Below, in pieces: positions 5,326-31,814 of a stretch of DNA of 34,922 nucleotides. Position 1 is the first letter of the stretch; each line of letters starts with the position of its first letter. The translations under genes were made by a program, and so were the position numbers. The stretch lies in NCBI GenBank assembly GCA_005893295.1, contig VBOY01000039.1, positions 19,541 through 54,462 on the forward strand. The letters are read 5' to 3'. The notes beneath the pieces were generated by a model. It saw only the letters and a list, made by a program, of their open reading frames with translations, was not told the DNA's origin and searched no databases. The stretch comes from Candidatus Eiseniibacteriota bacterium. GTDB taxonomy: Bacteria > Eisenbacteria > RBG-16-71-46.

Positions 5326-7689
5326 ATGAGCGGCACGGTCGGCGACAAGTTCGAGCCGCACGCACCCGAGCACCCGCCGCTCGGCGGCGGCGGCGGCTGC
5401 CTCGAAATCCTCTCCGATCGGCTCCAATCGAGCCCCGGCGTGGTGGCGATCGAGGCCGATTTCCGCGCCGGAACGCTCACCGTCCGCTACCAGCCGCAGC
5501 TCGTGGCGCCCGAACAGCTCAACGCCCTGGCCGACGACGTGGCGGAGCTGTTCGCGCAGCGGGTCACGTACTGCGAACGGCGTGAGTCGCTCGGGAGCTG
5601 TCACGAGTGCGCGCTCAGGCTGGGAAGCATGTCGCCCGCCGCGGGTCGCGAGTTCACGGTCACCGCCGATCCCGGGCGGGTGGGGCTGTCGCGCAGCCGC
5701 GTGCCCCCGGACGTGGCCGAGATGGTGCGGCCCCTGTCCCGCGCCAAGCCGTGGGGCGCCCCGTTCTCCCCTGCCGAGCAGGCCCAATACGCCAAGGGCC
5801 GCGCCATGGCGGTGCTCACGGCCACCTGCCTCGCTTTCCTGGTCGCCGGCATGGTGCTCGAGCGCGCCGGCGTCGCGGCGATCTGGCGCCACGCCGCCTA
5901 TCTCGCGTCGGCGTTCGCCGGAGGTTGGTTCGCATTGCGCTCCTCGCTCCAGGCGCTCGCGCGTCTGCGCTTCGATGTCAACCTGCTCATGATCCTGGCG
6001 GCACTCGGCGCGGGGCTCATCGGCTACGTGTTCGAAGCCGCGGTGCTCATGTTCCTGTTTTCGCTCAGCAACACGCTCGAGGTCTACACCATGGGACGGA
6101 CGCGCCGGGCGCTGCACGCTCTGCTCAAGCTGCGTCCGTCTCGCGCCCTGGTGCGGCGCGGCACCCGCGAGATCGAAGTCGAGGCCGAGGATGTCCAGGT
6201 GGGCGAGCGCGTGATCGTCAAACCGGGCGAAGCGATCCCGGTGGATGGCCGGGTCGCCGCCGGCGACTCGCTCGTCGACCAGAGCAACCTCACCGGCGAG
6301 TCCGTGCCGGTGCCCAAAGGGGCGGGCGATTCGGTGTTCGCGGGCACGCTCAACCAGCAAGGAGCGCTCGAGGTGCTCACGACGCGGGCCGCGGGCGACA
6401 CGACGCTCGCGCGCATCGTCGCGCTCGTGCAGGAAGCGCAGGCACAGAAGTCGCGCACCGAGGAGGTGGCCGAGTGGGTGGGGCGCTACTACACGATCGG
6501 CGTCCTGCTCGCGGCGGCGGCGATGATCCTGGTGCCGCCGCTCGCGCTCCGGCACGAGTTCCGCTCGTCATTCTACCGGGCGATGACGCTGCTCGTGGTG
6601 GCGTCCCCGTGCGCGCTCGTGATCGCCACGCCGGCCACCATCTTGTCGGCAATTGCCAACGCCGCGCGCCACGGCATCCTTTTCAAGGGAGGTCGATTCA
6701 TCGAAGCGCTCGGCCGGGTGCGCGCGGTGGCCTTCGACAAGACCGGGACTCTCACTCGCGGGCGCTTCGAAGTGACCGACGTGGTCCCCTTGGACGGCCT
6801 GCCGGAGACGCAGCTGCTGTCGTGGGCCGCCAGCGCCGAAAAGCGCTCCCAGCATCCGCTCGCCCAGGCGGTGGTGCGGGCAGCCGAAGCGCGCGGCGCG
6901 ACGACTACGCCGGCCGAGCAACTCACCGCCCACCTGGGCAAGGGCCTGGTGGCCGCGGTGAACGGCGCGACGATCGAGATCGGCACGCCCGATCTGTTCG
7001 CGCAGCTCGGCGTCACGGTACCGCGCGCAGGGACCGAGCTGGTCTCGCGCTTCAGTCGCGACGGCAAGACCCCGATGTTGGTGCGCTGCGGCGACGCCTG
7101 GGGGGTGATCGCCGCCGCCGACGAGGTGCGTCCGGCCGCGGCGGGAACGGTGGCCGCGCTGCGCGCGATCGGGGTCCGCGCGGTGGCGCTGTTGTCGGGA
7201 GACGCGGTTCAGACGGTGGAAGCGATCGCTCGCCGCACCGCGGTGGACGAGCATCATGGCGCGCTCCTTCCCGAGGACAAGGTGCGCGTGGTGGCGGACC
7301 TCGAGCGCCGGCACGGCGCGGTCGCGATGGTGGGTGACGGCGTCAACGACGCGCCGGCCCTGGCCCGCGCCACCGTCGGCGTGGCGATGGGCGGCATCGG
7401 GAGCGATGCGGCGATGGAGAGCGCCGACGTGGTGCTGATGGGGGACGACCTGACGTCGCTTCCGTATGCGCTCTCGCTCGCGCGGCGGGCGCGCCGCGTG
7501 GTGATTCAGAACGTTACCGTCGCCTCGGGCGTGATGGTGGTGCTCGTGTCGTTGGTCTTTTTCGGCCACCTGACGCCGCTCGGGCCACTCAAGCTCCCGG
7601 CCGCGGTTTCGGGCCACGAGGGGAGCACGGTGGTCGTCATCCTGAACGGGTTGCGACTGCTGGCGGGCAAGCGCGTCGCCGCGACCTAA
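5326..7689 (+). CDS. P1B-4-type heavy-metal-translocating P-type ATPase (Co/Ni/Zn/Fe class) with an N-terminal extension
   Basis: Motifs 'DKTGTLT', 'GDGVNDAPAL' and 'LTGES' are present. The transmembrane motif is 'SPC', not CPC, and the TM8 motif is 'HEGST'; both are P1B-4 signatures. The N-terminal roughly 150 aa look like a degenerate HMA fold with a single Cys, plus a 'CERRESLGSCHEC' cluster. Confidence 0.9.
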   Translation: MSGTVGDKFEPHAPEHPPLGGGGGCLEILSDRLQSSPGVVAIEADFRAGTLTVRYQPQLVAPEQLNALADDVAELFAQRVTYCERRESLGSCHECALRLGSMSPAAGREFTVTADPGRVGLSRSRVPPDVAEMVRPLSRAKPWGAPFSPAEQAQYAKGRAMAVLTATCLAFLVAGMVLERAGVAAIWRHAAYLASAFAGGWFALRSSLQALARLRFDVNLLMILAALGAGLIGYVFEAAVLMFLFSLSNTLEVYTMGRTRRALHALLKLRPSRALVRRGTREIEVEAEDVQVGERVIVKPGEAIPVDGRVAAGDSLVDQSNLTGESVPVPKGAGDSVFAGTLNQQGALEVLTTRAAGDTTLARIVALVQEAQAQKSRTEEVAEWVGRYYTIGVLLAAAAMILVPPLALRHEFRSSFYRAMTLLVVASPCALVIATPATILSAIANAARHGILFKGGRFIEALGRVRAVAFDKTGTLTRGRFEVTDVVPLDGLPETQLLSWAASAEKRSQHPLAQAVVRAAEARGATTTPAEQLTAHLGKGLVAAVNGATIEIGTPDLFAQLGVTVPRAGTELVSRFSRDGKTPMLVRCGDAWGVIAAADEVRPAAAGTVAALRAIGVRAVALLSGDAVQTVEAIARRTAVDEHHGALLPEDKVRVVADLERRHGAVAMVGDGVNDAPALARATVGVAMGGIGSDAAMESADVVLMGDDLTSLPYALSLARRARRVVIQNVTVASGVMVVLVSLVFFGHLTPLGPLKLPAAVSGHEGSTVVVILNGLRLLAGKRVAAT

Positions 7690-19201: not shown

Positions 19202-20636
19202 GATCGAGCAGGAACGGGAAGACAGCCTGGCGGAGCGCGGGCCACAGTTCCTGATTCGGCTCGCGGCGATGCTGCGGACCGCGCGCACCCACGACGTGTC
19301 GAACCAGGCGTTCCAGCGCCAGCTGAAAGACTTCATCCAGCTCCTGTCCGCGATGTTCGAGGAGGACTCGGGACAGGACGAGGTGGCGCTCGCCGCGGCT
19401 GTCGGCTACTTCTACCTCAATGCGGTCCGCATCCGCGCCCAAGCCTCGCTCCTCCCCGTGTACCACTGGCTGATGGCGGAGTTCGAGCGCCGCTCGTTGG
19501 GAGGGGTTCGCTTCCTTTCCGGGGTCCACGAAGCGGAGCTCGAGCGCTTCTTCCAGCTCTTCCTGGCCGCCGAGGACGCCGCGCTCGCCGCACGGATCGC
19601 CGAGGCGATGCGCGAAGCGAGCATCGAGCACATCGTGGCGGTGCCGGCCTCCGCGCTGGACACGGACGATCTCGAGGCCTCGCTGGACCATCGGCAGGAG
19701 AACGAGCGCGGTCGAGCGAAGAAGGTGTTTTGGCACGCCGTGCTCGGCACGCGACGGATCGTGGCGCGGGCGCGCCAAAACGGTCGGCCCGACCTACGTC
19801 AAGCGAAGCGTCTGGTTCAGCCCGTGGTGGACAGCATCATGCGTCACGAGTACTCGGTCGTGGGGCTCACCGCTTTGCGCGATCACGACGAGTACACCTA
19901 CGCGCATTGCGTGAACGTGAGCATCGTATCGGTCGGAATCGGGCAGGCGCTGGGGCTGTCGCGCCAGGTGCTGGCGGACCTCGGGGTGGCAGCGCTGTTG
20001 CACGACGTCGGCAAGGTCGCGATCCCGCGTGAAGTGCTGCAGAAGCCGGGCCGGCTCGACGCACAGGAATGGCACCTCATGCAGCGGCATCCGCTCGAGG
20101 GCGCCAAGATGATGAGCCGCATGCCCGGGCTCACCGGCCTCACGCTCGACTCGATGCGCGTGTGCCTGGAGCATCACATGAACTTCGACCGCACCGGCTA
20201 TCCCGACGTCGACATGGAGTGGGGGCAGGCCACGCTGTCGCGGATCGTGGCCGTGGCGGATTGCTTCGACGCGATCACGGCCCATCGCACGTACCACAGC
20301 AGGCCGCGCACCGCGTTCGAAGCGCTCCAGTACATGCTGGGGCCGACACGCGTGGGCTTCGATCCCGCCGTGTTGTGGGGCCTGGTGCGGACCGTCGGCC
20401 TCTACCCGGCGGGCAGCGTGCTCGAGACCGACGATCACCACCTGGTCCTGGCGCTGAGCCCGGCCCCGGGCGACGTGCGGCGGCCGAACTGCCGCATCCT
20501 CGCCCGCCCGGACGGCACGACGCTGTCCGAGGACCACGTCGAGGAGTGGACACCGATGCCCGACGAGCGCCACGTGGTGCGGGTGCTGTCGCCCGAGGAC
20601 CATGCCTTCGACACCACCGAGCTGATCGCAGCCTAG
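19194..20636 (+). CDS. HD-GYP domain protein (putative c-di-GMP phosphodiesterase) with a roughly 230-aa N-terminal domain of unknown function
   Basis: 'ALLHDVGK' (HD) and 'HHMNFDRTGYP' (GYP) are present. The start ATG lies inside the stop region of the HEAT gene. Confidence 0.8.
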   Translation: MSEIEQEREDSLAERGPQFLIRLAAMLRTARTHDVSNQAFQRQLKDFIQLLSAMFEEDSGQDEVALAAAVGYFYLNAVRIRAQASLLPVYHWLMAEFERRSLGGVRFLSGVHEAELERFFQLFLAAEDAALAARIAEAMREASIEHIVAVPASALDTDDLEASLDHRQENERGRAKKVFWHAVLGTRRIVARARQNGRPDLRQAKRLVQPVVDSIMRHEYSVVGLTALRDHDEYTYAHCVNVSIVSVGIGQALGLSRQVLADLGVAALLHDVGKVAIPREVLQKPGRLDAQEWHLMQRHPLEGAKMMSRMPGLTGLTLDSMRVCLEHHMNFDRTGYPDVDMEWGQATLSRIVAVADCFDAITAHRTYHSRPRTAFEALQYMLGPTRVGFDPAVLWGLVRTVGLYPAGSVLETDDHHLVLALSPAPGDVRRPNCRILARPDGTTLSEDHVEEWTPMPDERHVVRVLSPEDHAFDTTELIAA

Positions 20637-20787: not shown

Positions 20788-21246
20788 TCAGTCGTCACAA
20801 TCCTCGTCGCCTTGATCCCCACACCAATCGCCATAGTCGTCGTCCGCCTCGATCACGCGCACCACGGACGGGTGATGATGGACGCGCACGTGGCTGTAGT
20901 AGACATCGAGCGTGGCGAAGCTCTCGTGGCAATAGGGGTCGTAGTAGACATAGCCCGCGGGGGCGGCGTGGGCGAGCGAGGCGCCGAGGAAGAGTCCCCC
21001 CAGGAAGCCGGCGAATACCGGCCCTGCGTTGCTGCGGCGCACGATGTAGGTCCCGTACGCCGGCTGGCGATAGCGGACCACGGTTCGAGGGGCGTAGTAG
21101 CTCCGCACCACCCGCACCTCGCGGTACGCGGGCCGGTAGCGGCGCCACCGGTGGCTCGCTTCGGCGGCCGGGCTCAAGATCGCCACGGCGACCAGGGCCA
21201 GCAGTAGCTCGGCGACCCAGCGCCTCGTTCTCGGGGCCTTTCTCAT
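20788..21246 (-). CDS. Small secreted protein: Tyr/Arg-rich N-terminal region, Gly-rich hydrophobic core, His cluster and acidic Cys-containing tail
   Basis: Signal peptide 'VAELLLALVAVAILSPAAEA'. Also present are 'HVRVHHHP', 'DPYCHES' and the C-terminal 'DWCGDQGDEDCDD'. Confidence 0.4.
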   Translation of the reverse strand: MRKAPRTRRWVAELLLALVAVAILSPAAEASHRWRRYRPAYREVRVVRSYYAPRTVVRYRQPAYGTYIVRRSNAGPVFAGFLGGLFLGASLAHAAPAGYVYYDPYCHESFATLDVYYSHVRVHHHPSVVRVIEADDDYGDWCGDQGDEDCDD

Positions 21247-21456: not shown

Positions 21457-21873
21457 CTAGTTGCTGGTCGCGGTATGAACTACGCCGGCGTCGTTGTTCA
21501 CCCAGCGCACGTGCCCGGTGGGCTTGATGGAAACGGTCGAGGGCGAGAACGCATGGCCGTAAGGCGGATTGGACACCATCGAAACCACGGCCGAGTCTGC
21601 TTGCCCGGTGGCGATCGAGATCGTTCCCGTCATCTCGGCGTGATGGCGGCAGTGGTACCCGACGGTAGCCGCGGTGGGGAAGGTGAACTGGAAGCTCTGT
21701 CCCTGGTTCATGTCCCCGGAGTCGAAGCTGTCGCCGGAGGGGGGATTCGTGATCCCACCTCCGCCGCCCCCACCACCATTGTTCTTCGAGCAAGCCGACA
21801 TCGAGGTGACGCAGAACAGAACCAGAACCACGGTGGGCCGGACAAACGGGGTCGATCGGGCAGGCATCGCCAT
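21457..21873 (-). CDS. Lipoprotein type-1 (blue) copper cupredoxin with a Gly8 linker; ligand segments appear in permuted order
   Basis: Lipobox 'VTSMSAC', then 8 Gly. 'YHCRHHAEMTG' is the Cys-His-Met loop. The C-terminal 'FSPSTVSIKPTGHVRWVNNDAGVVHT' matches the plastocyanin N-terminal His strand ('[25 protein letters not shown]'). Confidence 0.55.
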   Translation of the reverse strand: MAMPARSTPFVRPTVVLVLFCVTSMSACSKNNGGGGGGGGITNPPSGDSFDSGDMNQGQSFQFTFPTAATVGYHCRHHAEMTGTISIATGQADSAVVSMVSNPPYGHAFSPSTVSIKPTGHVRWVNNDAGVVHTATSN

Positions 21874-21988
21874 CCTCCAGTCTTGGCTTCGTCGCGGCAC
21901 ATTGTCGCCTTTGGATGGGACGCGAGCCGCCGCGGATTCGTGAGATGGTCCCCCGCAGGCCCGAGCGCCGGCCTCGTCTCGAGGATCG

Positions 21989-22505
21989 TCATCCAACGCC
22001 GGGTTCGTGTTCGCGGTGCCGTTGGGCGCGCTTCCTGCGCCGCGCCGCCTCGGCGGTCAGCAAGAAGATGCTCAACCCGACGATCAGGAAGGCGAGCGAC
22101 GCTTGGAACGTGACGAACATCGCCACCTTGAGATAGGCGAAGCCTGGATGCCAGAACCGCGTCATCCAACCCGCCGCCTCCGAAAGCAGCGCCGAGCCGA
22201 ACGCCACCGGCCGAGAAACGGAGCGGGGCGAAGAGCATCAAGTGGCAGAGCAGCAGCAGCACGAGCGCGAACATCGGCAGGTGCATATGCGTGACCTCGA
22301 GCATGCTGACCGCCGAGCGCGGCGGCCGGAACTCGGCCTCGTTCCCACGGTAGTAAGACACGATGCTCGCCGGATCCAGGTTCATGTGCGACAGGTAGAG
22401 TGCGAGGTTGGTCGCCCAGAAGCCGGCCAGCAGCAGCAACGCGAGTCCCAGCGTGAGCCGCATCAGCGGCTGGTTCTGGAAGCCTCCCGATTCGAGGTAC
22501 TTCAT
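21989..22505 (-). pseudogene. Polytopic His-rich membrane protein gene with an apparent -1/+1 frameshift near 22207-22230
   Basis: The N-terminal part (frame of ORF 21708..22556) is membrane-like up to 'LFAPLRFS'. A convincing membrane C-terminus continues in the frame of ORF 21989..22207. After the junction, frame A degenerates into a Gly/Arg-rich translation that overlaps the cupredoxin gene. Confidence 0.35.
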
Positions 22506-22734: not shown

Positions 22735-25700
22735 ATGCTCGAGCGATTCGCGGGCCGATACCTCCTGCTGAGGCGCCTGGGACAGGGCGGGATGGGTGAG
22801 GTCTACCTGGCCCGCGATCTGACGACCGGGGCCGAGTGCGCTCTCAAGCGCCTTGCGGCGCGGAACGTGAGCCCCGATGCCGCGCGCCGCGAATTCGAGA
22901 TCCTGTCGCGCATCCGGCATCCCGCGATCGTCGAGGTGCACGAGCTCGGCCTCGCCGCCGATGGAACCCCCTACATGACGATGGAGTACGTGCCGGGCGT
23001 GGCGGCCGACCGCGCGCTGGCGCGCGGCGACTGGGCGACGCTGCTATTCGTGGCCGCGCGCGTGGCGCAGGGCCTCGAAGCGCTCCACGGGGCAGGCGTG
23101 CTGCACGGCGACCTCAAGCCCTGGAACTTGCTCGTCGTGCCCGGGCCCTCGCCCGACGCGCCGGTGGCCGACGTGAAGCTCGTCGATTTCGGCCTTGCGG
23201 CGCTGCGCGACGCCGCCGGCGAGGGCCGCCGGGGCACGCCGGGCTTCGCCGCACCCGAAACGGTGCGCGGTGAAACGCCTTCGATCGCCTCGGACCTCTA
23301 CGGCTTCGGCGCGACGCTCTACGCGCTGGCCGCGCGCCGTTCGCCCTACGAGGGGGACTCTGCGGTCGAGGTGCTGCGCCGCCAGCAAGCCGGGCCGCCT
23401 TCCGCACTTCCGCTCGAGGAGGTCGGCACGCCCGCTCCGCTCGTCCAGTTCGTGCTGCGGTTGATGGCGCCCGACGCCTCCGAGCGACCGGCGGACGCCC
23501 GCGAAGCGCGGCGCGAGCTCGAGCGCCTGCATCCGGTCTCGCGCCGCCCGCTCGCCGAGCGTCTCGAGACCGCGGTCACGGTGGGACGCGAGCGGGAGCT
23601 GGCGCGCCTCGAGCGATCGCTCGAGCGTGACACGGCGAGGCGGATCATCGTGCTGTCGGGTCCGGCGGGCCTGGGCAAGTCCACGCTGCTGACCGAGCTC
23701 GCGGTGCGCGGGTCGCTCGCGGGCCGGCACGTGCTGCACGCTTCGTGCGCCGCGCATGAGCCGGCGGACATCGCACGCCGGCTGCTCAAGCGTCTCGAGA
23801 CCGAGGCGGGTGAGGCCGTGGCGCCCTCGGCTGCCACCCGTGCCTTGTTCGAGTCGCGGAGCGCCTTCACGACCCTCGACCTCGAGGAGATGGTGGCGGA
23901 CGCGACGCGCTGGGCGGTCGAGGTCGCCGAGCGCGCCGGCCCGCTGCGTGTCCTGCTCGACGACGTGGAGCGACTGGATCCATTTTCGCGCTCGCTCATC
24001 CGCCGCCTGGTGGTCCGAAGGGCCCCGATCCACTGGGTGTGGGCGCGTCGCGACATCATGGGAGCATCCGACGAGCGCATGATGCTCGAGGCCGGGCTCG
24101 CGGAACACGTGGAGCTCTCGCCGCTCGCCGAGGACGGAATTGCGCGACTCGCCGCGGTGCGGCTCGGTGAGCCGGCTCCCGAGGCCCTGGCGTCGTTTCT
24201 GTGGAGTCGAAGCGGCGGGCATCCCGGGTTCGCGGTCGAGCTGCTCCGCGCGGCGGCCGCCGATGGCGTGCTGGTCGAGCAGGATCAGGGCCTGGTCGTG
24301 GCCGCGGACCGGCTCACCTCGCTAAAGATCCCCCGAGATTTCCAGGCTTCGCTGCTCGAACGGGTGGCGGCCTTGCCGGCCGAGGCGCGCGAGGCCGCCG
24401 CCGCGCTCGCGGCGTGGGGCCGGCCGCTCGCGGCCGCGGACCTCAAGGCCCTTGCGCCGCGAGCCGACGAGCGCACGCGGGCGCGATTGATCGCCGCCGG
24501 GCTGGCGGCGCGCGGCGAGGGTGGGACCCTGACGCTGAGACCTCCGGCGCTCGCAGAGGAGCTGCTGCGAATGCTCGCGCCCGACGATCGCCGGGCGCTC
24601 CACCGCGCGGCCCTCGAACGGCCGGGGCTCGACCACGCCGAGCGCTTCCGGCACCTGCGGGAGGCGGGCGACACCTCAGGGGCGCTGGCGGCGGCCGAGT
24701 CGAGCTACGCCGAGCGGCCGAGCTACGAGCTGGCGGCCGCGGCGGCGGAGCTGGCGGAACCGAGCGCCCGCGATCGCGCCGGGCTGTGGCACGACCGCGC
24801 GGCGCGCGAGCTGGCCGCATTGGGCCGCTACGCCGCGGCGATTCCACATCTCGAACGCGCGCTGGCGTTGGAGTCCGACAGTCCCGCGCGACCCGAGCGC
24901 TGGGTACGCCTTTCGGGCGCGTGCCTCAGGGCCGGCCGACTCGACGACACCGAGTCCACCATCGCCCGCGCGCTCGCGGAGGATCCGCCGGCGGCGTTTC
25001 GGGCCAAGCTTCTCTGCAATCAAGCGGCACGCCGCCTCGCGCTCGGCGATCGCGACGCGGCCCGCACGCGAGCCGAGGAATCGCTGGCGCTCGCCGAGGG
25101 CGCGGCGGATTCCGAAGCCATCGGCGCGTCCGCCGAGCTGCTCGCCTACTTGCTGCTCGCCGAGCAGCGCACGGAGGAGGCCGAAGCGATGGCGAGGAGA
25201 GCCGGCGATGCGTACCGGGAAGGGCGTCACGTTCACGGCTCGATCCGCGCCCTCGGGATCAAGGGAGCGATCGCGCGGGCCCGCGGCCGGCTCGCCGAAG
25301 CGGAGCGACATTACCGCGACGGTCTGGCCGAAGCGCGGGCGCGCGCGCATCGCTTGGCCGAAGAAGAGTTGCTGCTGAATCTGGCCGTGGTCCTGGCCGA
25401 ATCGGGCCAGTGGACCGCGTTGCGTGAAACGTTCGAGAAGGCTTCACGCATCGCCCTCGAAGATGGTCGGGCCGGGGGCGCCGCCGTGGCCGTCGCCGGG
25501 CTGTCACACGCCGACGGCCTCACCGGCCGGCCGCGAGCGGCGCGCCGCCAAGGACGCGCCGCAGTGAGGCTCACGCGGAGCCACGTGCCACGGCTCGAGG
25601 CCTACGCCTGGCGCGCCCTCGCCCAGGCCGACCGCATCGCCGGGCGGCTCGATCGCGCGGAACGGGCGGCGCGGCGCGCGGTGACGCTCGCGGCCCGTCA

Positions 25701-27786
25701 GGTGCCGGAGGAGCTGGACTGGAGCCGCATCGAGCTCGGCCGCGCGCTGGCCGCGAGCGCGCGCTGGAACGAGGCGGGCGAGCTGTGGGACGCGGCACGC
25801 GATCGGGCGTCCGACCCGAACGCCGTGGCGACCGCGGTGCTCGAGGTTCTGGCAGGCATGGCCGCACTGCGGCGCGGGCGGCCCGACCGAGCCGCCGCGC
25901 GGCTCAAGACCGCAGAGGAATGGCTCGGCACGCACCCGGCTCCGTACGTCGAGGCGCTCGCCCGGCGACTCGAGGCCGAGCTGGCGTTGAAGGACGGCCG
26001 GCTCGCGGAGGGCCGCGAAACAGGCCACGGTGCCCTCGAGAAGCTGGCGGCTCTTCCGGCGCCGGTCGAACGCGCGCACGCCGCCCTCGAGCTGGCCCGC
26101 CTCGCTCCGGCGAGCCCCGAGCTGGCGCCCGCGGTGGTGTCGTGGCTCGACCTGGCGATCGGGACCTTCGAGCGCGTGGGCGACCGCAGCAGCCGCGAAC
26201 GCGCCCTGGCGCTGCTGGTCGAGTGGCTGCGCCGCCATCCGGTGCGACCTCCGGCTCCCGCGGGCGGCCGCGACCTGATCGAGCGCGTGAGCTGGCTGCT
26301 CCACTCGCTCTCGGATCCGCGCGAGCTCACCCAGCGCGCGATGCGCATGGCGGTGGAGCAGCTCGACGCGGAGCGGGGGGTGCTGCTGCTCATCGACTCC
26401 GAGAGCGGCCTGCTCGCGCCGATCGCCGAGCACGGCGCGGTGGACGCCGCGACCCGCCGTGAGGCGGTGGGCTACAGCCGCCGCGTGGCCCAGCGGGTGA
26501 CCGAAAGCGGAGACAGCCTGCTCATCACCGACGCCCCCGCGGACCCGCGCGTGCTCTCGGAGAGCGTCGTCGACATGCAGTTGCGCTCGATCCTGTGCGT
26601 GCCGATGTTCCTCGGGGGTCACGTGGTGGGCGCGGTCTACCTCGACGACTCGCGGCGCGCCCACACGTTCGGCGACGCCGACCGGGGCCTGCTCGAGGGG
26701 TTCGCGCACCTGATGGCGGTGGCGATCGAGAACAGTCGCGGGCACGACGAAGTGCGGCAGGTGAAGGAGCTGCTGGAGGGCGAGAACCTGTCGCTGCGCC
26801 AGGAAGTAGGGGTGCGCTTTCGCCCGAACAACGTGGTCGGATCGAGCAGCCAGATGCAGCGCGTGCTGGCCATGGTGGAGCACGCTGCCCGCACGCAGAC
26901 CACGGTGCTGATCACCGGGGAGAACGGCACCGGCAAGGAGCTGATCGCCCGCACGCTCCACCACGGCGGCAAGCGACGCTTGCGGCCGTTCGTGGCCGTC
27001 AATTGCGGCGCGATCCCGGAATCCCTGATCGAGAGCGAGCTGTTCGGCATCCTCCCCAACGTGGCCACCGGCGTGCGCGGCCGGCCGGGGCGTTTCGTGC
27101 AGGCCGATGGCGGGACGCTGTTCCTCGATGAGATCGGCGAGATGCCGCTCAAACAGCAGGTGACGCTGCTGTCGGCGATCGCGAACCGCGAGATCACTCC
27201 GGTGGGAGGCGGGAAGCCGATTCCGGTGGACGTTCGGATCATCGCCGCCACGAACCAGAACCTGCGTCGCCAGGTCGAGCAGGGAGCGTTCCGCGAAGAC
27301 CTCTACTATCGGCTCAACGTGATCGAGATCGAGGTGCCGCCGCTGCGCGAGCGAAAGGCGGACATCCCCGGGCTGGCGAAGCACTTTCTGGCCCAGTTCG
27401 CCGCGCAGCAGGAGCGCGACGTCCCCACCATGACGCCGGAGTTCCTTGCCGCCTTGATGCAGAGCGACTGGCCGGGCAACGTGCGCGAGCTACAGAACTA
27501 CATCGAGCGAATCCTGGCGATGACGATGGGCTCGGTGCTCATGCCGGATCCGCCGCCGCGCGACCTTCAGGAGCGCGGGGCGAGGAAGCTGCCGAGGGGG
27601 CGGCGCCTGGTGGATAGCGTGGAGGACCTCGAACGCCGGCTGGTGGGGGAGGCCCTGGAACGGGCCCGTGGCAACCAGAGCCACGCCGCAAAGGAGCTGG
27701 GGCTGACCGAGCAGTCCATGCGCTATCGCATACGGAAATATGGGCTTCACTCTGCTCGCGGAAACCGGCGAACTCGCCGAAGTTAG
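22735..27786 (+). CDS. 1683-aa fusion protein with six modules: non-RD Ser/Thr kinase, STAND/MalT-like NTPase, TPR-like helical repeats, GAF, sigma54-interaction-type AAA+ domain, Fis HTH
   Basis: Kinase: 'LGQGGMGEVY', 'ALKRL', 'HGDLKPWN', 'DFG', 'APE'. STAND Walker A 'GPAGLGKST' and Walker B 'VLLDDVERLD'. GAF region 'LCVPMFLGGHVVGAVYLDD'. AAA+ module: 'ITGENGTGKE', 'GGTLFLDEIGEMP', 'RIIAATNQNL', 'FREDLYYRLNVIEIEVPPLRERKADI'. HTH: 'HAAKELGLTEQSMRYRIRKYGL'. Confidence 0.85.
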   Translation: MLERFAGRYLLLRRLGQGGMGEVYLARDLTTGAECALKRLAARNVSPDAARREFEILSRIRHPAIVEVHELGLAADGTPYMTMEYVPGVAADRALARGDWATLLFVAARVAQGLEALHGAGVLHGDLKPWNLLVVPGPSPDAPVADVKLVDFGLAALRDAAGEGRRGTPGFAAPETVRGETPSIASDLYGFGATLYALAARRSPYEGDSAVEVLRRQQAGPPSALPLEEVGTPAPLVQFVLRLMAPDASERPADAREARRELERLHPVSRRPLAERLETAVTVGRERELARLERSLERDTARRIIVLSGPAGLGKSTLLTELAVRGSLAGRHVLHASCAAHEPADIARRLLKRLETEAGEAVAPSAATRALFESRSAFTTLDLEEMVADATRWAVEVAERAGPLRVLLDDVERLDPFSRSLIRRLVVRRAPIHWVWARRDIMGASDERMMLEAGLAEHVELSPLAEDGIARLAAVRLGEPAPEALASFLWSRSGGHPGFAVELLRAAAADGVLVEQDQGLVVAADRLTSLKIPRDFQASLLERVAALPAEAREAAAALAAWGRPLAAADLKALAPRADERTRARLIAAGLAARGEGGTLTLRPPALAEELLRMLAPDDRRALHRAALERPGLDHAERFRHLREAGDTSGALAAAESSYAERPSYELAAAAAELAEPSARDRAGLWHDRAARELAALGRYAAAIPHLERALALESDSPARPERWVRLSGACLRAGRLDDTESTIARALAEDPPAAFRAKLLCNQAARRLALGDRDAARTRAEESLALAEGAADSEAIGASAELLAYLLLAEQRTEEAEAMARRAGDAYREGRHVHGSIRALGIKGAIARARGRLAEAERHYRDGLAEARARAHRLAEEELLLNLAVVLAESGQWTALRETFEKASRIALEDGRAGGAAVAVAGLSHADGLTGRPRAARRQGRAAVRLTRSHVPRLEAYAWRALAQADRIAGRLDRAERAARRAVTLAARQVPEELDWSRIELGRALAASARWNEAGELWDAARDRASDPNAVATAVLEVLAGMAALRRGRPDRAAARLKTAEEWLGTHPAPYVEALARRLEAELALKDGRLAEGRETGHGALEKLAALPAPVERAHAALELARLAPASPELAPAVVSWLDLAIGTFERVGDRSSRERALALLVEWLRRHPVRPPAPAGGRDLIERVSWLLHSLSDPRELTQRAMRMAVEQLDAERGVLLLIDSESGLLAPIAEHGAVDAATRREAVGYSRRVAQRVTESGDSLLITDAPADPRVLSESVVDMQLRSILCVPMFLGGHVVGAVYLDDSRRAHTFGDADRGLLEGFAHLMAVAIENSRGHDEVRQVKELLEGENLSLRQEVGVRFRPNNVVGSSSQMQRVLAMVEHAARTQTTVLITGENGTGKELIARTLHHGGKRRLRPFVAVNCGAIPESLIESELFGILPNVATGVRGRPGRFVQADGGTLFLDEIGEMPLKQQVTLLSAIANREITPVGGGKPIPVDVRIIAATNQNLRRQVEQGAFREDLYYRLNVIEIEVPPLRERKADIPGLAKHFLAQFAAQQERDVPTMTPEFLAALMQSDWPGNVRELQNYIERILAMTMGSVLMPDPPPRDLQERGARKLPRGRRLVDSVEDLERRLVGEALERARGNQSHAAKELGLTEQSMRYRIRKYGLHSARGNRRTRRS

Positions 27787-28838: not shown

Positions 28839-29393
28839 TCAGCGGACCGCCTTTCGCGCCAGCGCCGGGGCTGCGACGATCTCGTAGAGGGCGAGCGCCA
28901 GACGAGCGCTCTCGCCGATCGCGCGCGCGGTGAGCGTGGCACCGGAAAGAGCGGGGATCGCGCGCCCCGGCCACATCCGGTCGTCGAGCCGCCGGTGGGC
29001 GAAGAGCGACAGCCACCGCGGCTCGGGCGCATAATCGGGCGGCTCGTGGAACGCCAGCACGTCGATCCGCGATACCGTGGTATCGGGTGCAATCGCCACC
29101 ATGAGGACTGCCGGCATGGTGCGCACCACGCGCGCATCGAAGAACGCCGTCCCGGTCAGGCTGTCGCCTCGCCAGGCGAAGTACGCGATCACCAGCCGCG
29201 AGGGAAGCTTCACGCGCGCCCGCTTCTCCACCGTGGCCGCCTCCGCGGCGCCGAGGGCGAACGAGCGGCGCCCGATGCGCGCGCCGGGAAACGCCTGCGC
29301 GAGCGCCTCCTCGCGCGTCATGAAGGCAGCGGCCCGCGCTTCGAGCGGCCAGGACAGCGCGGCCAGGACGAGAGCCAACGCGACTCGAGACAC
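28839..29393 (-). CDS. Secreted FMN_bind-domain protein (predicted substrate for ApbE flavinylation)
   Basis: Signal peptide present. The 'IPALSGATLTARAI' motif matches the NqrC/RnfG FMN_bind 'SGAT(L/I)TS' site, in which the Thr is flavinylated. Confidence 0.55.
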   Translation of the reverse strand: MSRVALALVLAALSWPLEARAAAFMTREEALAQAFPGARIGRRSFALGAAEAATVEKRARVKLPSRLVIAYFAWRGDSLTGTAFFDARVVRTMPAVLMVAIAPDTTVSRIDVLAFHEPPDYAPEPRWLSLFAHRRLDDRMWPGRAIPALSGATLTARAIGESARLALALYEIVAAPALARKAVR

Positions 29394-29396
29394 AGC

Positions 29397-30737
29397 CTAG
29401 AACAGATACCCGAGCGCCACGTTCCACTGATCGGTCGCGGTGTCGGCTTCGTCGTGGCGCCACTGGCGGTCCGTCTTGAGCACCACTTGAGGATGGGGTT
29501 TGAAGGCGACGCCGGCGGTGATCACCGAACGCCGGTTCGCTGGATCCTCGGCGCCACCCGGGACGTCCTCTTGCGTGTCGTACCGCTCGAGCCTCGCGTA
29601 CGGAGCGAGCCCCCATTCGGCGGCGGGGGCTAAGAGGGGCGCGACGTCGTACGCACCCTCGACGTAGCCGCCGAAGAACGATTTGCCGAGTCGGTCCGAG
29701 CCCGTCAAGCCGAGCGCGTCCGAGAGGTCGGAGACGTCGGTGAGCGCGCCGTGCGCGTAGAGCCCTGACAACGTCAACCCCCGCCACTGGAGGCGGGAGT
29801 GGAGGTCGAACAAGGTGAGCCGCGGGGTCACCTCGGCTCCCGCGGGCTGAAAGTCCTGCCAGCTGTCGCCGGTGAATGCTGCGGCACCGGCCGTGAGGCC
29901 GGGAAAGCCGACGTAGTCCAGGCGCGCGGCCACCGCCCCGCGGGTAGCGAGACTCTGCGAACCGTTCTGGCGCCCCTCGCGAATCCCCTGTGAAGCCGAG
30001 AAGCCACGCGCGTTCAGCCCCTCGGTCAGGAAGAGACGGTATTCGAGCCCTCGCCCGCGGCCGTGGATCCCGATGCCGTTTGCGCTCCACGTCGTGGGAA
30101 TGATGACTTGCTCGACGTCGGGGCGCCGGGCGCCGAGGAAGATCGGCGGCTCGTGAAGCTCGTTCACGAGCCCGAGCGGAAGGAGCATCATGCCGGCTCG
30201 AACGCCCACCCCCGGACGCAGCAGCCAGTCGATGTAGGCGAACTCGAGCGAGACCTCCCCCGAGAGCTCCGCCGAACCTTGGACCTCGCCGGTCAAGGGA
30301 TCCGCCCGGCCCTCGACCAAGGCTTCGTCGCGCACCCCGCCGTGCTCCAGCTCGATCTCGGAGTTGAACAACAGCCGGTCGGTGAACTTGTAGCCCAGGT
30401 ACACCACCTGCCGCAGATGATCGAGGCGGTCGAGCTTACCCGAAGGGACGTCGTCTTCGCGGGAGCGATCGAAGTTCTCGTAGAGCGCCTCGCCGTAGCC
30501 TCCGATCGAGACCCCGGGCCCGGCTCCGTACACCTTGGAGGCTGCGGGCGCGAGCCCGAAGCGGCCGGCGGTCCGCGCGCGCGCGGTCGTGTCCGCCACG
30601 GCGCCCAATTGGATGTTCTCGATCTCCGCGGTGAGCGCCTCCACTTTGCGCTCCAATTCGCCGATCCGCTCGTCGTCGGCGAATGCCGGCCCGGCGAAGC
30701 CCAAGACCAACAGCAGGGAAACAAGCGCCATCTTCAC
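29397..30737 (-). CDS. Outer-membrane porin-like beta-barrel with an N-terminal coiled-coil
   Basis: Signal peptide 'ALVSLLLVLGFAGPAFA'. Coiled-coil 'ERIGELERKVEALTAEIENIQ'. Alternating beta pattern ending in 'NVALGYLF', with a C-terminal Phe. Confidence 0.55.
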   Translation of the reverse strand: MKMALVSLLLVLGFAGPAFADDERIGELERKVEALTAEIENIQLGAVADTTARARTAGRFGLAPAASKVYGAGPGVSIGGYGEALYENFDRSREDDVPSGKLDRLDHLRQVVYLGYKFTDRLLFNSEIELEHGGVRDEALVEGRADPLTGEVQGSAELSGEVSLEFAYIDWLLRPGVGVRAGMMLLPLGLVNELHEPPIFLGARRPDVEQVIIPTTWSANGIGIHGRGRGLEYRLFLTEGLNARGFSASQGIREGRQNGSQSLATRGAVAARLDYVGFPGLTAGAAAFTGDSWQDFQPAGAEVTPRLTLFDLHSRLQWRGLTLSGLYAHGALTDVSDLSDALGLTGSDRLGKSFFGGYVEGAYDVAPLLAPAAEWGLAPYARLERYDTQEDVPGGAEDPANRRSVITAGVAFKPHPQVVLKTDRQWRHDEADTATDQWNVALGYLF

Positions 30738-30758
30738 GATGCATCCTTTCCTTCGAGG

Positions 30759-31814
30759 TCAGTTCATCCAGCGGATCGCGACTCCGGGCTCGGCGATCGC
30801 GGAGAGATTCCATTTCCAGGCGCGCAGAAGACCATGATCGGGCTCGATCCACAACACGCCGATCTCCTGGTGGCGCCGCGCCAGGGCCAAGGCACGCTCG
30901 CGGCCCATCACCAGCAGCGCCGTCGACAGGCCATCGGCGCGCGTGGCCGAGGGAGCGACCACGGTGACGGTTGCTTGGGTGTCGAGCGGCCGGCCGCTCG
31001 AAGGGTCGAGGATGTGCCCCAAGTGCTTGCCCCGGACCGTGACCCCGCGCACTCCCTGGCCGGAGGTCGAGACCGCTCCTTGGGCGATCGCAATCCGTAC
31101 GGCCGGCCGCAGGCGGTCGTTGGGATGAGCCACCGCGATCGGCCACGGCCGGCCCTTGGGCGAGAGAGCGAGCACCTCGCCTCCCAGGTTGAGCAGCGCA
31201 CGCTCGATGCCCTCGGCCGCCAGCAGTCGTGCGGCCCGATCGAGGGCGAACCCCTTGCCGATCCCGCCCAAGTCCACCCCCATTCCAGGCGTGGCGAGCC
31301 GCGCCATGTGGCGCGTGGGGTCGAGCGTGAGGCGGGACCAGGCCACGCGGGAGCGCGCCACGGCGATCTCCCGCGGCGAGGGCACGCGGCCCTTGCCGCG
31401 CAGGTCCCAGATGCGGTCGAGCGGCTCCACCGTCGGATCGAACGCGCCCGAGGTGGCGCGCGCGATCGCGAGCGCCGAGTCGAGAACAGCGTAGAGATCC
31501 TGAGAACAACGGAAGGCACTGCCGGCCGCCCGATTGAGGCGTGACAGCTCGCTGTCCTTGCGCCACGAGCTCATCACGTTTTCGAGCCGAGCGATCTCGT
31601 CGAGCGAGTGGGCGAGGACCCGGGCCGCCTGGGTCGAGTCGGGGGCTTCGGCCGTGGCGGTCAAGATCGTGCCCATCAGATAGCGCGCCCGCTCGACGCC
31701 AACGGGTCGGGCGGCCTCGCGCACCGCGCACCCGCCCGCAAGCAGGGAAGCGAGGGCCCACAGGGCGCGGATGCCGCCGCGTCGCCCCTGCTCAGCGGGG
31801 CGGCTTTGGGACAT
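30759..31814 (-). CDS. apbE: ApbE-family FAD:protein FMN transferase (lipoprotein)
   Basis: Lipobox 'LLAGGCA'. ApbE motifs 'YLMGT' and 'DLGGIGKGFALD' are present. Confidence 0.85.
   Translation of the reverse strand: MSQSRPAEQGRRGGIRALWALASLLAGGCAVREAARPVGVERARYLMGTILTATAEAPDSTQAARVLAHSLDEIARLENVMSSWRKDSELSRLNRAAGSAFRCSQDLYAVLDSALAIARATSGAFDPTVEPLDRIWDLRGKGRVPSPREIAVARSRVAWSRLTLDPTRHMARLATPGMGVDLGGIGKGFALDRAARLLAAEGIERALLNLGGEVLALSPKGRPWPIAVAHPNDRLRPAVRIAIAQGAVSTSGQGVRGVTVRGKHLGHILDPSSGRPLDTQATVTVVAPSATRADGLSTALLVMGRERALALARRHQEIGVLWIEPDHGLLRAWKWNLSAIAEPGVAIRWMN

Follow-up and report, generated by a model that had tools for sequence, protein, structure and literature searches.

The stretch analysed here, referred to below as the window, comprises 34,922 nucleotides (positions 19,541–54,462 of contig VBOY01000039.1, assembly GCA_005893295.1) from Candidatus Eiseniibacteriota bacterium. 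On its minus strand lies the gene for a predicted lipoprotein of the cupredoxin type, in which the two halves of the domain, and with them the copper-ligand segments, stand in swapped order relative to plastocyanin. The gene and its parts are listed below, with residues counted from the first ATG and β strands named as in plastocyanin.

21457–21873, minus strand: gene for the permuted cupredoxin lipoprotein, 138 aa from the first ATG (from the open reading frame list and the sequence)
21874–21878, minus strand: Shine–Dalgarno-like GGAGG, abutting the first ATG and 6 nt upstream of the second (read from the sequence)
21793–21873, minus strand: predicted signal peptide, residues 1–27, with an Arg-containing n-region, a hydrophobic core and the lipobox S-M-S-A before Cys28 (from the translation and the layout common to the family)
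21790–21792, minus strand: lipobox Cys28, predicted lipid-attachment site and first mature residue, an invariant column in the family alignment A2
21754–21789, minus strand: putative flexible tether SKNN-GGGGGGGG, residues 29–40 (from the sequence; predicted local distance difference test, pLDDT, below 50 for residues 32–41)
21610–21753, minus strand: first half of the domain, residues 41–88, equivalent to the canonical C-terminal half, with the FDSG segment and β6–β8, ITNPPSGDSFDSGDM...YHCRHHAEMTGTISIA
21631–21651, minus strand: predicted copper-ligand loop Cys75-Arg-His-His78-Ala-Glu-Met81, a C-x2-H-x2-M loop of amicyanin length, with C75, H78 and M81 invariant in A2
21592–21609, minus strand: connector TGQADS, residues 89–94, which links the canonical C- and N-termini; Asp93-Ser94 is invariant
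21460–21591, minus strand: second half of the domain, residues 95–138, equivalent to the canonical N-terminal half, β1–β4, AVVSMVS...FSPSTVSIKPTGHVRWVNNDAGVVHTATSN
21475–21477, minus strand: His133, predicted to be the fourth ligand of the copper, counterpart of plastocyanin His37/39, invariant in A2 and five residues from the C-terminus

The 138-residue translation runs through MAMPARSTPFVRPTVVLVLFCVTSMSA, the lipobox Cys, SKNNGGGGGGGG, ITNPPSGDSFDSGDMNQGQSFQFTFPTAATVGYHCRHHAEMTGTISIA, TGQADS and AVVSMVSNPPYGHAFSPSTVSIKPTGHVRWVNNDAGVVHTATSN to a TAG stop codon at 21457–21459. The actual start is probably the second ATG (21865–21867; MPARS..., 136 aa), which is favoured because the GGAGG lies 6 nt before it and the gene is called there in L001, a contig from another sample (ENA assembly ERZ27286009). 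The GC content of third codon positions (GC3) is 0.81 and uniform across both halves of the open reading frame, in a window of 70% GC. A scan for regulatory signals found no sigma-70-like promoter around the gene and, near it, a single weak terminator-like site on the opposite strand; an Rfam scan of the window gave no match, and an exact look-up of the protein returned no record. The precursor sequence (...VTSMSA-C28-SK) combines a signal peptide with a lipobox, as expected for a bacterial lipoprotein, and a lipobox-type Cys is seen throughout the family, so that lipidation of Cys28 is predicted. A previous inspection of the DNA by itself (the sequence-only reading) had singled out the tether and placed its eight-glycine run correctly at 21754–21777; the run is made of eight mixed GGN codons and is not homopolymeric, as had been thought, and by sequence comparison it is an ordinary case of the Gly/Ser/Pro/Asp-rich lipoprotein linkers found across the family. 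The same reading had put the copper loop at residues 114–123, a numbering that belongs to a 179-aa open reading frame with a TTG start (21996); in the 138-aa frame the segment occupies residues 73–83.

Profile searches recognize the two halves separately. The Pfam model Copper-bind (PF00127) scores 23.4 bits, against a gathering cut-off of 21.2, in two stretches, with residues 56–87 aligned to positions 65–98 of the 99-position profile, and the halocyanin model TIGR03102 aligns residues 82–136 with positions 12–66 of 115. The NCBIfam cut-offs were missed by the models for plastocyanin (TIGR02656, 24.9 versus 87.85 bits), amicyanin (TIGR02657, 17.8 versus 110.2) and halocyanin (TIGR03102, 22.1 versus 93.8), each of which covers only half of the protein. 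Against the PDB, a profile of the family matched plastocyanins and amicyanins with E-values down to 1.7e-12. The match to Synechocystis plastocyanin (1PCS; whole-sequence E = 1.7e-12) consists of two pieces that are separately significant and stand in reversed order: profile positions 88–125 align with residues 3–41, which include the ligand His (independent E-value 4.7e-05), and positions 49–80 with residues 64–97, which include Cys, His and Met (4.2e-04). His133, Cys75, His78 and Met81 align to the plastocyanin ligands, making up the full His, Cys, His, Met set. In the canonical order, the His strand precedes the Cys-His-Met loop by about 40–50 residues; here, the Cys loop lies at 75–81 and the His at 133. 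The Pfam, TIGR03102 and 1PCS alignments in reversed pieces bear out the swapped ligand order proposed in the sequence-only reading, as well as its placement of a plastocyanin-like His segment at the extreme C-terminus, with His133, five residues from the end, falling in the piece aligned to 1PCS residues 3–41. The suggestion of a 'minimal' domain does not hold: the folded part, residues 41–138, is 98 aa long, the size of a whole plastocyanin, and nothing is missing.

The two new ends of the chain fit together as in a canonical protein. The C-terminus HTATSN and the start after the tether (...SGDSFDSGDM), when joined, recreate HTVTANDASFDSGDM, the canonical β4/β5 junction of the relative P0003, which reads VHTVTANDASFDSGDM there. 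To judge from such sequence comparisons, the permutation cut the β4/β5 connection with essentially no loss, because in canonical proteins the gap between these two ends is typically 2 residues (in coordinates of the hidden Markov models, HMMs, of the half-domains).

HMMER, run exhaustively against 1.84 billion cluster representatives (50% identity), returned ten representatives of 125–138 aa, 46–57% identical to the query, whose match to it is unbroken over its whole length and extends to their own C-terminus, and many tandem cupredoxin proteins (170–1450 aa, up to 11 matched stretches). In the tandem arrays, the query aligns in one piece across the domain junctions, so that its match covers the C-half of one domain and the N-half of the following one. 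Dozens of further members came from a profile search of 5.8 billion proteins; more than a third of them lack a precomputed Pfam domain, and where JGI supplies a name, they are called 'plastocyanin'. All 241 proteins collected were classified with half-domain HMMs derived from the permuted family: 57 are C-then-N, 44 are canonical N-then-C, and the remainder are tandem arrays. The size of the permuted family, at least 57 protein clusters, is a lower bound. Cys, His, Met and the terminal His are kept in 57 of the 57 permuted proteins, nearly all of which stop 4–5 residues past the terminal His with the abrupt end HT-x-T-x-x. The common plan consists of a signal peptide, the lipobox Cys, a low-complexity tether, FDSG...YHC..H..MTGTVTV, the connector A-x-G-x-x-D-S, and ...F.P..V.IKPGG.VRW.N....HTVT(S/R)(N/D/P) followed by the stop. 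Among the invariant columns of the 12-sequence alignment A2 are Cys28, Tyr73, Cys75, His78, Met81, Asp93, Ser94 and His133. When GTDB was scanned with a 5-sequence alignment, each species being represented by one genome, nine loci came up, and every one of them carries the permuted form; their titles read Candidatus Eisenbacteria (candidate phylum Eiseniibacteriota) in six cases, Acidiferrales in one (L009) and uncultured bacterium in two. A search for homologues with the same order, which the sequence-only reading had proposed, thus yields at least 57 permuted clusters and nine species-genome loci.

Within this plan the ligand loop varies, C-x2-H being followed by x1, x2, x3, x4 or x6 and then Met. 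The shortest form, C-x2-H-x1-M, occurs in P0157, P0159 and P0163; the longest, C-x2-H-x6-M, contains an extra His (CTFHTTAHYRM in P0191, CRYHTTTHHRM in P0194). Accretions are seen as well: the member at L006 1459–2100 has an extra domain of about 90 aa between lipobox and cupredoxin and a Met/His-rich C-terminal tail, GTAMKMPHM, and P0185 has a long Gly/Met-rich tether and tail.

Could the unusual order be an accident of sequencing, assembly or gene decay, that is, a truncated tandem gene or a mis-assembled or frameshifted canonical gene that makes no functional protein? The Gly-codon run is GC-rich and repetitive, and the upstream gene switches frame relative to an intact homologue in L010, so the window is not free of indels or pseudogenes. 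Contig L001, however, is independent and about 97% identical in DNA over the gene and its flanks; it shows the same start, stop and Gly8 length with one synonymous change in the Gly8 run, and no indels, which gives no support to the suspected indels, whether among the glycine codons or towards the 3' end. The two copies differ by 7 synonymous and 5 non-synonymous changes (ratio of non-synonymous to synonymous differences per site, pN/pS, about 0.24), of which 5 synonymous and 2 non-synonymous fall in residues 39–136; changes in the mature part are mostly synonymous. A JGI metagenome fragment (P0002) is 100% identical. Ends, lipobox and ligands are common to the 57 clusters, whose median mutual identity over the half-domain columns is about 48%. 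When the half-domain HMMs were run over all six frames of the whole window, they detected a single C-half (21610–21729) and a single N-half (21460–21597), both in one frame; no leftover of any other half-domain turned up in any of the six. The uniform GC3 signal along the open reading frame and the confident AlphaFold2 model described below also speak against an artefact. We rejected this explanation on the strength of L001, the recurrence of the family and the lack of leftover halves; it is largely refuted already, and we regard it as very improbable.

The frame switch upstream concerns a gene for a membrane protein at 21989–22505 (minus strand). Compared with an 80%-identical intact homologue in the Eisenbacteria locus L010, its residues 1–99 are in one frame and 107–154 in another, with about 7 residues missing; the switch lies between 22209 and 22204, and the GC3 signal switches frame there too. 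This gene is either a pseudogene or carries an indel error of the window. Its product has four helices and a conserved EVTHMHL motif, and matches no Pfam or NCBIfam model except for a sub-threshold hit to DUF5671. On another Eisenbacteria contig (L012, 3428–3676), only the N-half, the second half, of a permuted gene is in frame, the preceding C-half being seemingly out of frame or missing; this copy may be frameshifted or decayed.

AlphaFold2, run with A2, predicts the domain with pLDDT values of 96–98 over residues 51–138, with the signal and tether disordered. The predicted strands are 60–64, 69–74 and 82–87 (β6–β8), then 94–101, 107–110/113–116 and 121–126 (β1–β3), with short strand segments near His133. 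From this fold and the alignment of each ligand to its canonical position, the four ligands would converge on one site. Foldseek found no match in the PDB at E ≤ 0.001, and sequential aligners perform poorly on permuted chains; this result means only that no solved structure has the same chain order at detectable similarity. The nearest solved structure, at 14% identity, is the engineered circularly permuted azurin 5SYD, and this man-made protein is the only solved structure with similar connectivity.

A confident monomer model bears on whether each molecule closes its own domain. Alternatively, the C-half of one molecule could pair with the N-half of another, giving domain-swapped dimers or chains with intermolecular copper sites; this would accord with the contiguous alignment of the query over tandem-array junctions, where both halves belong to different domains, and with the shortness of the connector, about 6 residues. 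The connector itself is revealing. The new β8–β1 join has 4 residues between HMM boundaries in 46 of the 57 members and one more in 7, whereas the C-to-N linkers of tandem arrays have a median of 27 residues (range about 0 to more than 100) and lack the Asp-Ser turn. A fixed length with an invariant Asp-Ser is the pattern of a structured intramolecular turn, and, as far as sequence conservation goes, it speaks against a loose linker between domains and, with less force, against domain swapping as a necessity. The pLDDT of 96–98 for a monomer points the same way, as does 5SYD, in which a 5-residue GIPGG linker closes the native termini and which was solved with a cupredoxin fold; one lipid anchor per chain would presumably also limit run-away polymerisation. 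Swapped oligomers are therefore an unlikely alternative to a domain closed within one chain.

Among known proteins, the single-domain plastocyanin/amicyanin/halocyanin group (PF00127) is similar to the permuted family in the homology of both halves, in the domain size of 98 aa, in the His-Cys-His-Met set and in the predicted strand pattern. The likeness to amicyanin lies in the C-x2-H-x2-M loop and its Y-H-C context, and the N-half resembles plastocyanin and halocyanin. In contrast to this group, the permuted family is cut right after the His-bearing β4, and the old termini are joined by the conserved Asp-Ser turn. Canonical-order lipoprotein cupredoxins (P0003, P0198, P0200) likewise have a signal peptide, a lipobox Cys, a Gly/Ser/Asn tether and the segments HTVT...FDSG and YHC..H..MTG, and the C-half of P0003 is 64% identical to that of the cupredoxin studied here. 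In those proteins, however, the tether enters at β1, far from the copper, whereas in the permuted family it enters at the β4/β5 connection. Lipid-anchored cupredoxins include Neisseria Laz, auracyanin and halocyanin. Tandem multi-cupredoxin proteins (P0044, P0112, P0034, P0005), with 2 to about 7 N–C pairs, are the closest relatives by score, but they keep complete N–C domains and have long, variable C-to-N linkers.

The comparable permutant with a solved structure is artificial, namely the circularly permuted azurin cpAz (5SYD), for which PMC6288478 lists Yu et al., Protein Sci 2017, among its references. Its sequence starts just before the His46 strand and ends after β3, with the native termini joined by GIPGG. 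cpAz is man-made, azurin-based and soluble, and its cut before the His46 strand keeps the order His...Cys-His-Met; in the permuted family, the cut is one strand later, the His strand becomes C-terminal, and a lipoprotein signal is present. Natural permuted cupredoxins were found neither in the full texts of 7.7 million PMC papers and bioRxiv, a collection that is incomplete, nor as a curated model, and literature on Eisenbacteria with copper contained nothing on them. The conserved family thus appears to be undescribed.

For a neighbour-joining tree, halves were re-ordered to a common order, giving 603 domains and 83 columns. On this tree, 55 of 56 permuted proteins lie on one side of a split together with a single non-permuted domain, and the largest pure clade has 50. 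The sister group of the permuted clade consists mostly of domains of 2–5-domain tandem cupredoxins; under a model of permutation by duplication, the tandem arrays would be the likely ancestors of the permuted family. The halves are swapped, nothing was lost, and tandem-repeat relatives exist, as such a route would leave them; surviving intermediates of the signal-C-N-C type were sought among the collected proteins and none was found, apparent cases being fragments or proteins with an undetected first N-half. The tree and the median identity of about 48% point to one ancient event followed by diversification. In the proposed course, a tandem cupredoxin lipoprotein would have lost its first N-half and last C-half, and the inter-domain linker would then have been shortened to the fixed, Asp-Ser-containing turn. 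A tandem-domain deletion, which the sequence-only reading had offered as one explanation, is accordingly retained as the probable ancient route, with tandem arrays as nearest relatives and the alignment over their junctions in its favour, and discarded as a recent accidental deletion or pseudogene. Some arrays (P0004–P0043) are very long, 570–1450 aa with up to 11 HMMER-matched stretches, corresponding to at most about seven N–C pairs by the half-domain HMMs, and some of them have signal peptides.

Taken together, the product of the gene is quite probably a type-1 (blue) copper protein that is functional and was circularly permuted in nature. The analysis shows the swapped homology, with its recurrence and conservation, the predicted fold and the near-monophyly; lipidation, folding within a monomer, copper binding, electron transfer and the evolutionary route are what we infer from them. 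The other explanation in the sequence-only reading, a genuinely permuted type-1 domain, gains support from L001, from the four ligands in at least 57 clusters and 9 species genomes, from AlphaFold2 and from the permuted azurin as nearest structure. Several points weigh on the other side. Bootstrap support is moderate, roughly half of 30 replicates keeping at least 46 of the 56 permuted proteins together; the half-domain HMMs derive from the permuted family, and the tree is crude, with a short alignment and a distance method. The AlphaFold2 alignment held only 12 sequences, and prediction from the single sequence gave a mean pLDDT of 37.7. Finally, Pfam and NCBIfam searches of the neighbouring genes revealed no respiratory or denitrification partner, and for this reason the electron-transfer role is assigned solely by homology.

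In the model that we favour, the precursor would be exported, lipid-modified on Cys28 and held at the membrane by the Gly-rich tether of about 12 residues. The 98-residue domain would fold into the cupredoxin Greek-key sandwich with the chain order β5-β6-β7-β8-connector-β1-β2-β3-β4 relative to plastocyanin. One copper would be bound by Cys75, His78 and Met81 from the β7–β8 loop and by His133 on the last strand, giving the ligand order Cys-His-Met...His in place of His...Cys-His-Met. Lipid-anchored type-1 copper proteins shuttle single electrons in the periplasm, and by analogy with them the protein is most likely a periplasmic one-electron shuttle.

The neighbourhood was considered with this role in mind. 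On the cupredoxin strand, the four-helix membrane protein lies upstream, and a secreted 152-aa protein, an HD-GYP-type HD domain protein and a HEAT-repeat protein follow downstream; this downstream trio is syntenic in several related loci, and the flanking genes of the window are 50–81% identical to the flanks of several loci among L006–L011, which makes Eiseniibacteriota a very probable origin of the window. Since the spacers are about 190–350 nt and the synteny spans unrelated genes, we ascribe it to common descent and not to an operon. The context in L003, a 3.6 Mb contig, shows no synteny with the window. Neither Pfam nor NCBIfam revealed a copper-specific link among the neighbouring genes.

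The secreted protein (20788–21246, minus strand) matches no Pfam or NCBIfam model. Its signal peptide is followed by a basic stretch and a hydrophobic segment of the glycine-zipper type (GPVFAGFLGGLFLGA); the motif Y-x-Y-x-D-P-Y-C-x3-F-x2-L-x5-H-x4-HHP-x-V, which is conserved, comes next, and the tail is acidic. Its homologues lie just downstream of the cupredoxin in L006, L007, L008, L009 and L010, with spacers of about 190–350 nt. Judging by its residues, the Cys/His motif might bind metal.

A gene for a P1B-type heavy-metal ATPase (E1-E2 ATPase and HAD domains, DKTGT) is found at 5326–7689 (plus strand); the transmembrane motif of its product is SPC, and the N-terminal region contains a CHEC motif. 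The usual motif of copper pumps is CPC, and by its motif this ATPase is probably not a copper pump.

These genes enter into another reading of the function, in which the domain is folded, permuted and copper-binding, and serves copper handling or stress defence in the envelope (sequestration, delivery or resistance), possibly with the downstream secreted protein, instead of shuttling electrons. The missing respiratory partner, the synteny of the Cys/His-motif protein in five related loci, the heavy-metal ATPase 16 kb away and the Met/His- or Gly/Met-rich tails of L006 and P0185, which we take to resemble Cu(I)-binding segments, would all agree with it. However, the full type-1 ligand set, typical of electron transfer, is invariant in the family; the synteny takes in the unrelated HD-GYP and HEAT-repeat genes and may reflect shared ancestry only; the spacers before the secreted gene are of the length given above, and the pairing is absent in L003; and the ATPase carries SPC rather than CPC. 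We give this reading little credence next to that of an electron shuttle.

Two further loci of the window have a connection to the cupredoxin gene in related genomes. A 1683-aa fusion of a Ser/Thr protein kinase, a STAND/AAA_16 ATPase, TPR repeats, GAF, a sigma-54 activator AAA+ and a Fis-type helix-turn-helix (22735–27786, plus strand) separates the cupredoxin block from genes that in L009 and L011 are directly upstream of the cupredoxin. The cluster at 28839–31814 (minus strand) contains genes for an FMN_bind protein (28839–29393), a 446-aa protein without a family match (29397–30737) and an ApbE flavin transferase (30759–31814), a gene content suggestive of an extracytoplasmic redox module that is flavinylated. 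In L006, a homologue of the 446-aa protein is encoded upstream of the cupredoxin.

There is a somewhat better than even case that these proteins are the first family of type-1 blue copper proteins in which circular permutation has occurred naturally: monophyletic lipoproteins, mostly from metagenome-assembled genomes labelled Candidatus Eisenbacteria, with the ligand order Cys-His-Met...His, a fourth ligand on the terminal strand five residues from the C-terminus, and the tether at the β4/β5 side instead of the end remote from the copper. How a rigid scaffold tunes a metal site (the entatic or rack state) is classically illustrated by cupredoxins, and circular permutants of azurin have been built by hand to probe how chain connectivity relates to the copper centre. 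A family that occurs in nature and has diversified, with another cut site, a changed ligand order, a near-terminal His and varied loop lengths would be ready material for that question, of interest to specialists in metalloproteins and protein evolution, and a clean example of permutation by duplication whose presumed tandem-array ancestors are still in the databases. Copper-protein inventories of uncultured phyla such as Eisenbacteria would undercount the permuted members, because a precomputed Pfam domain is lacking for more than a third of them and all fall short of the NCBIfam cut-offs, a gap that a family model of their own would close. If the interpretation is true, the family was overlooked since annotation says 'plastocyanin' or gives no domain, and the position of its tether, at the β4/β5 side, may change how the redox site is oriented to the membrane or adjust the potential of that site.

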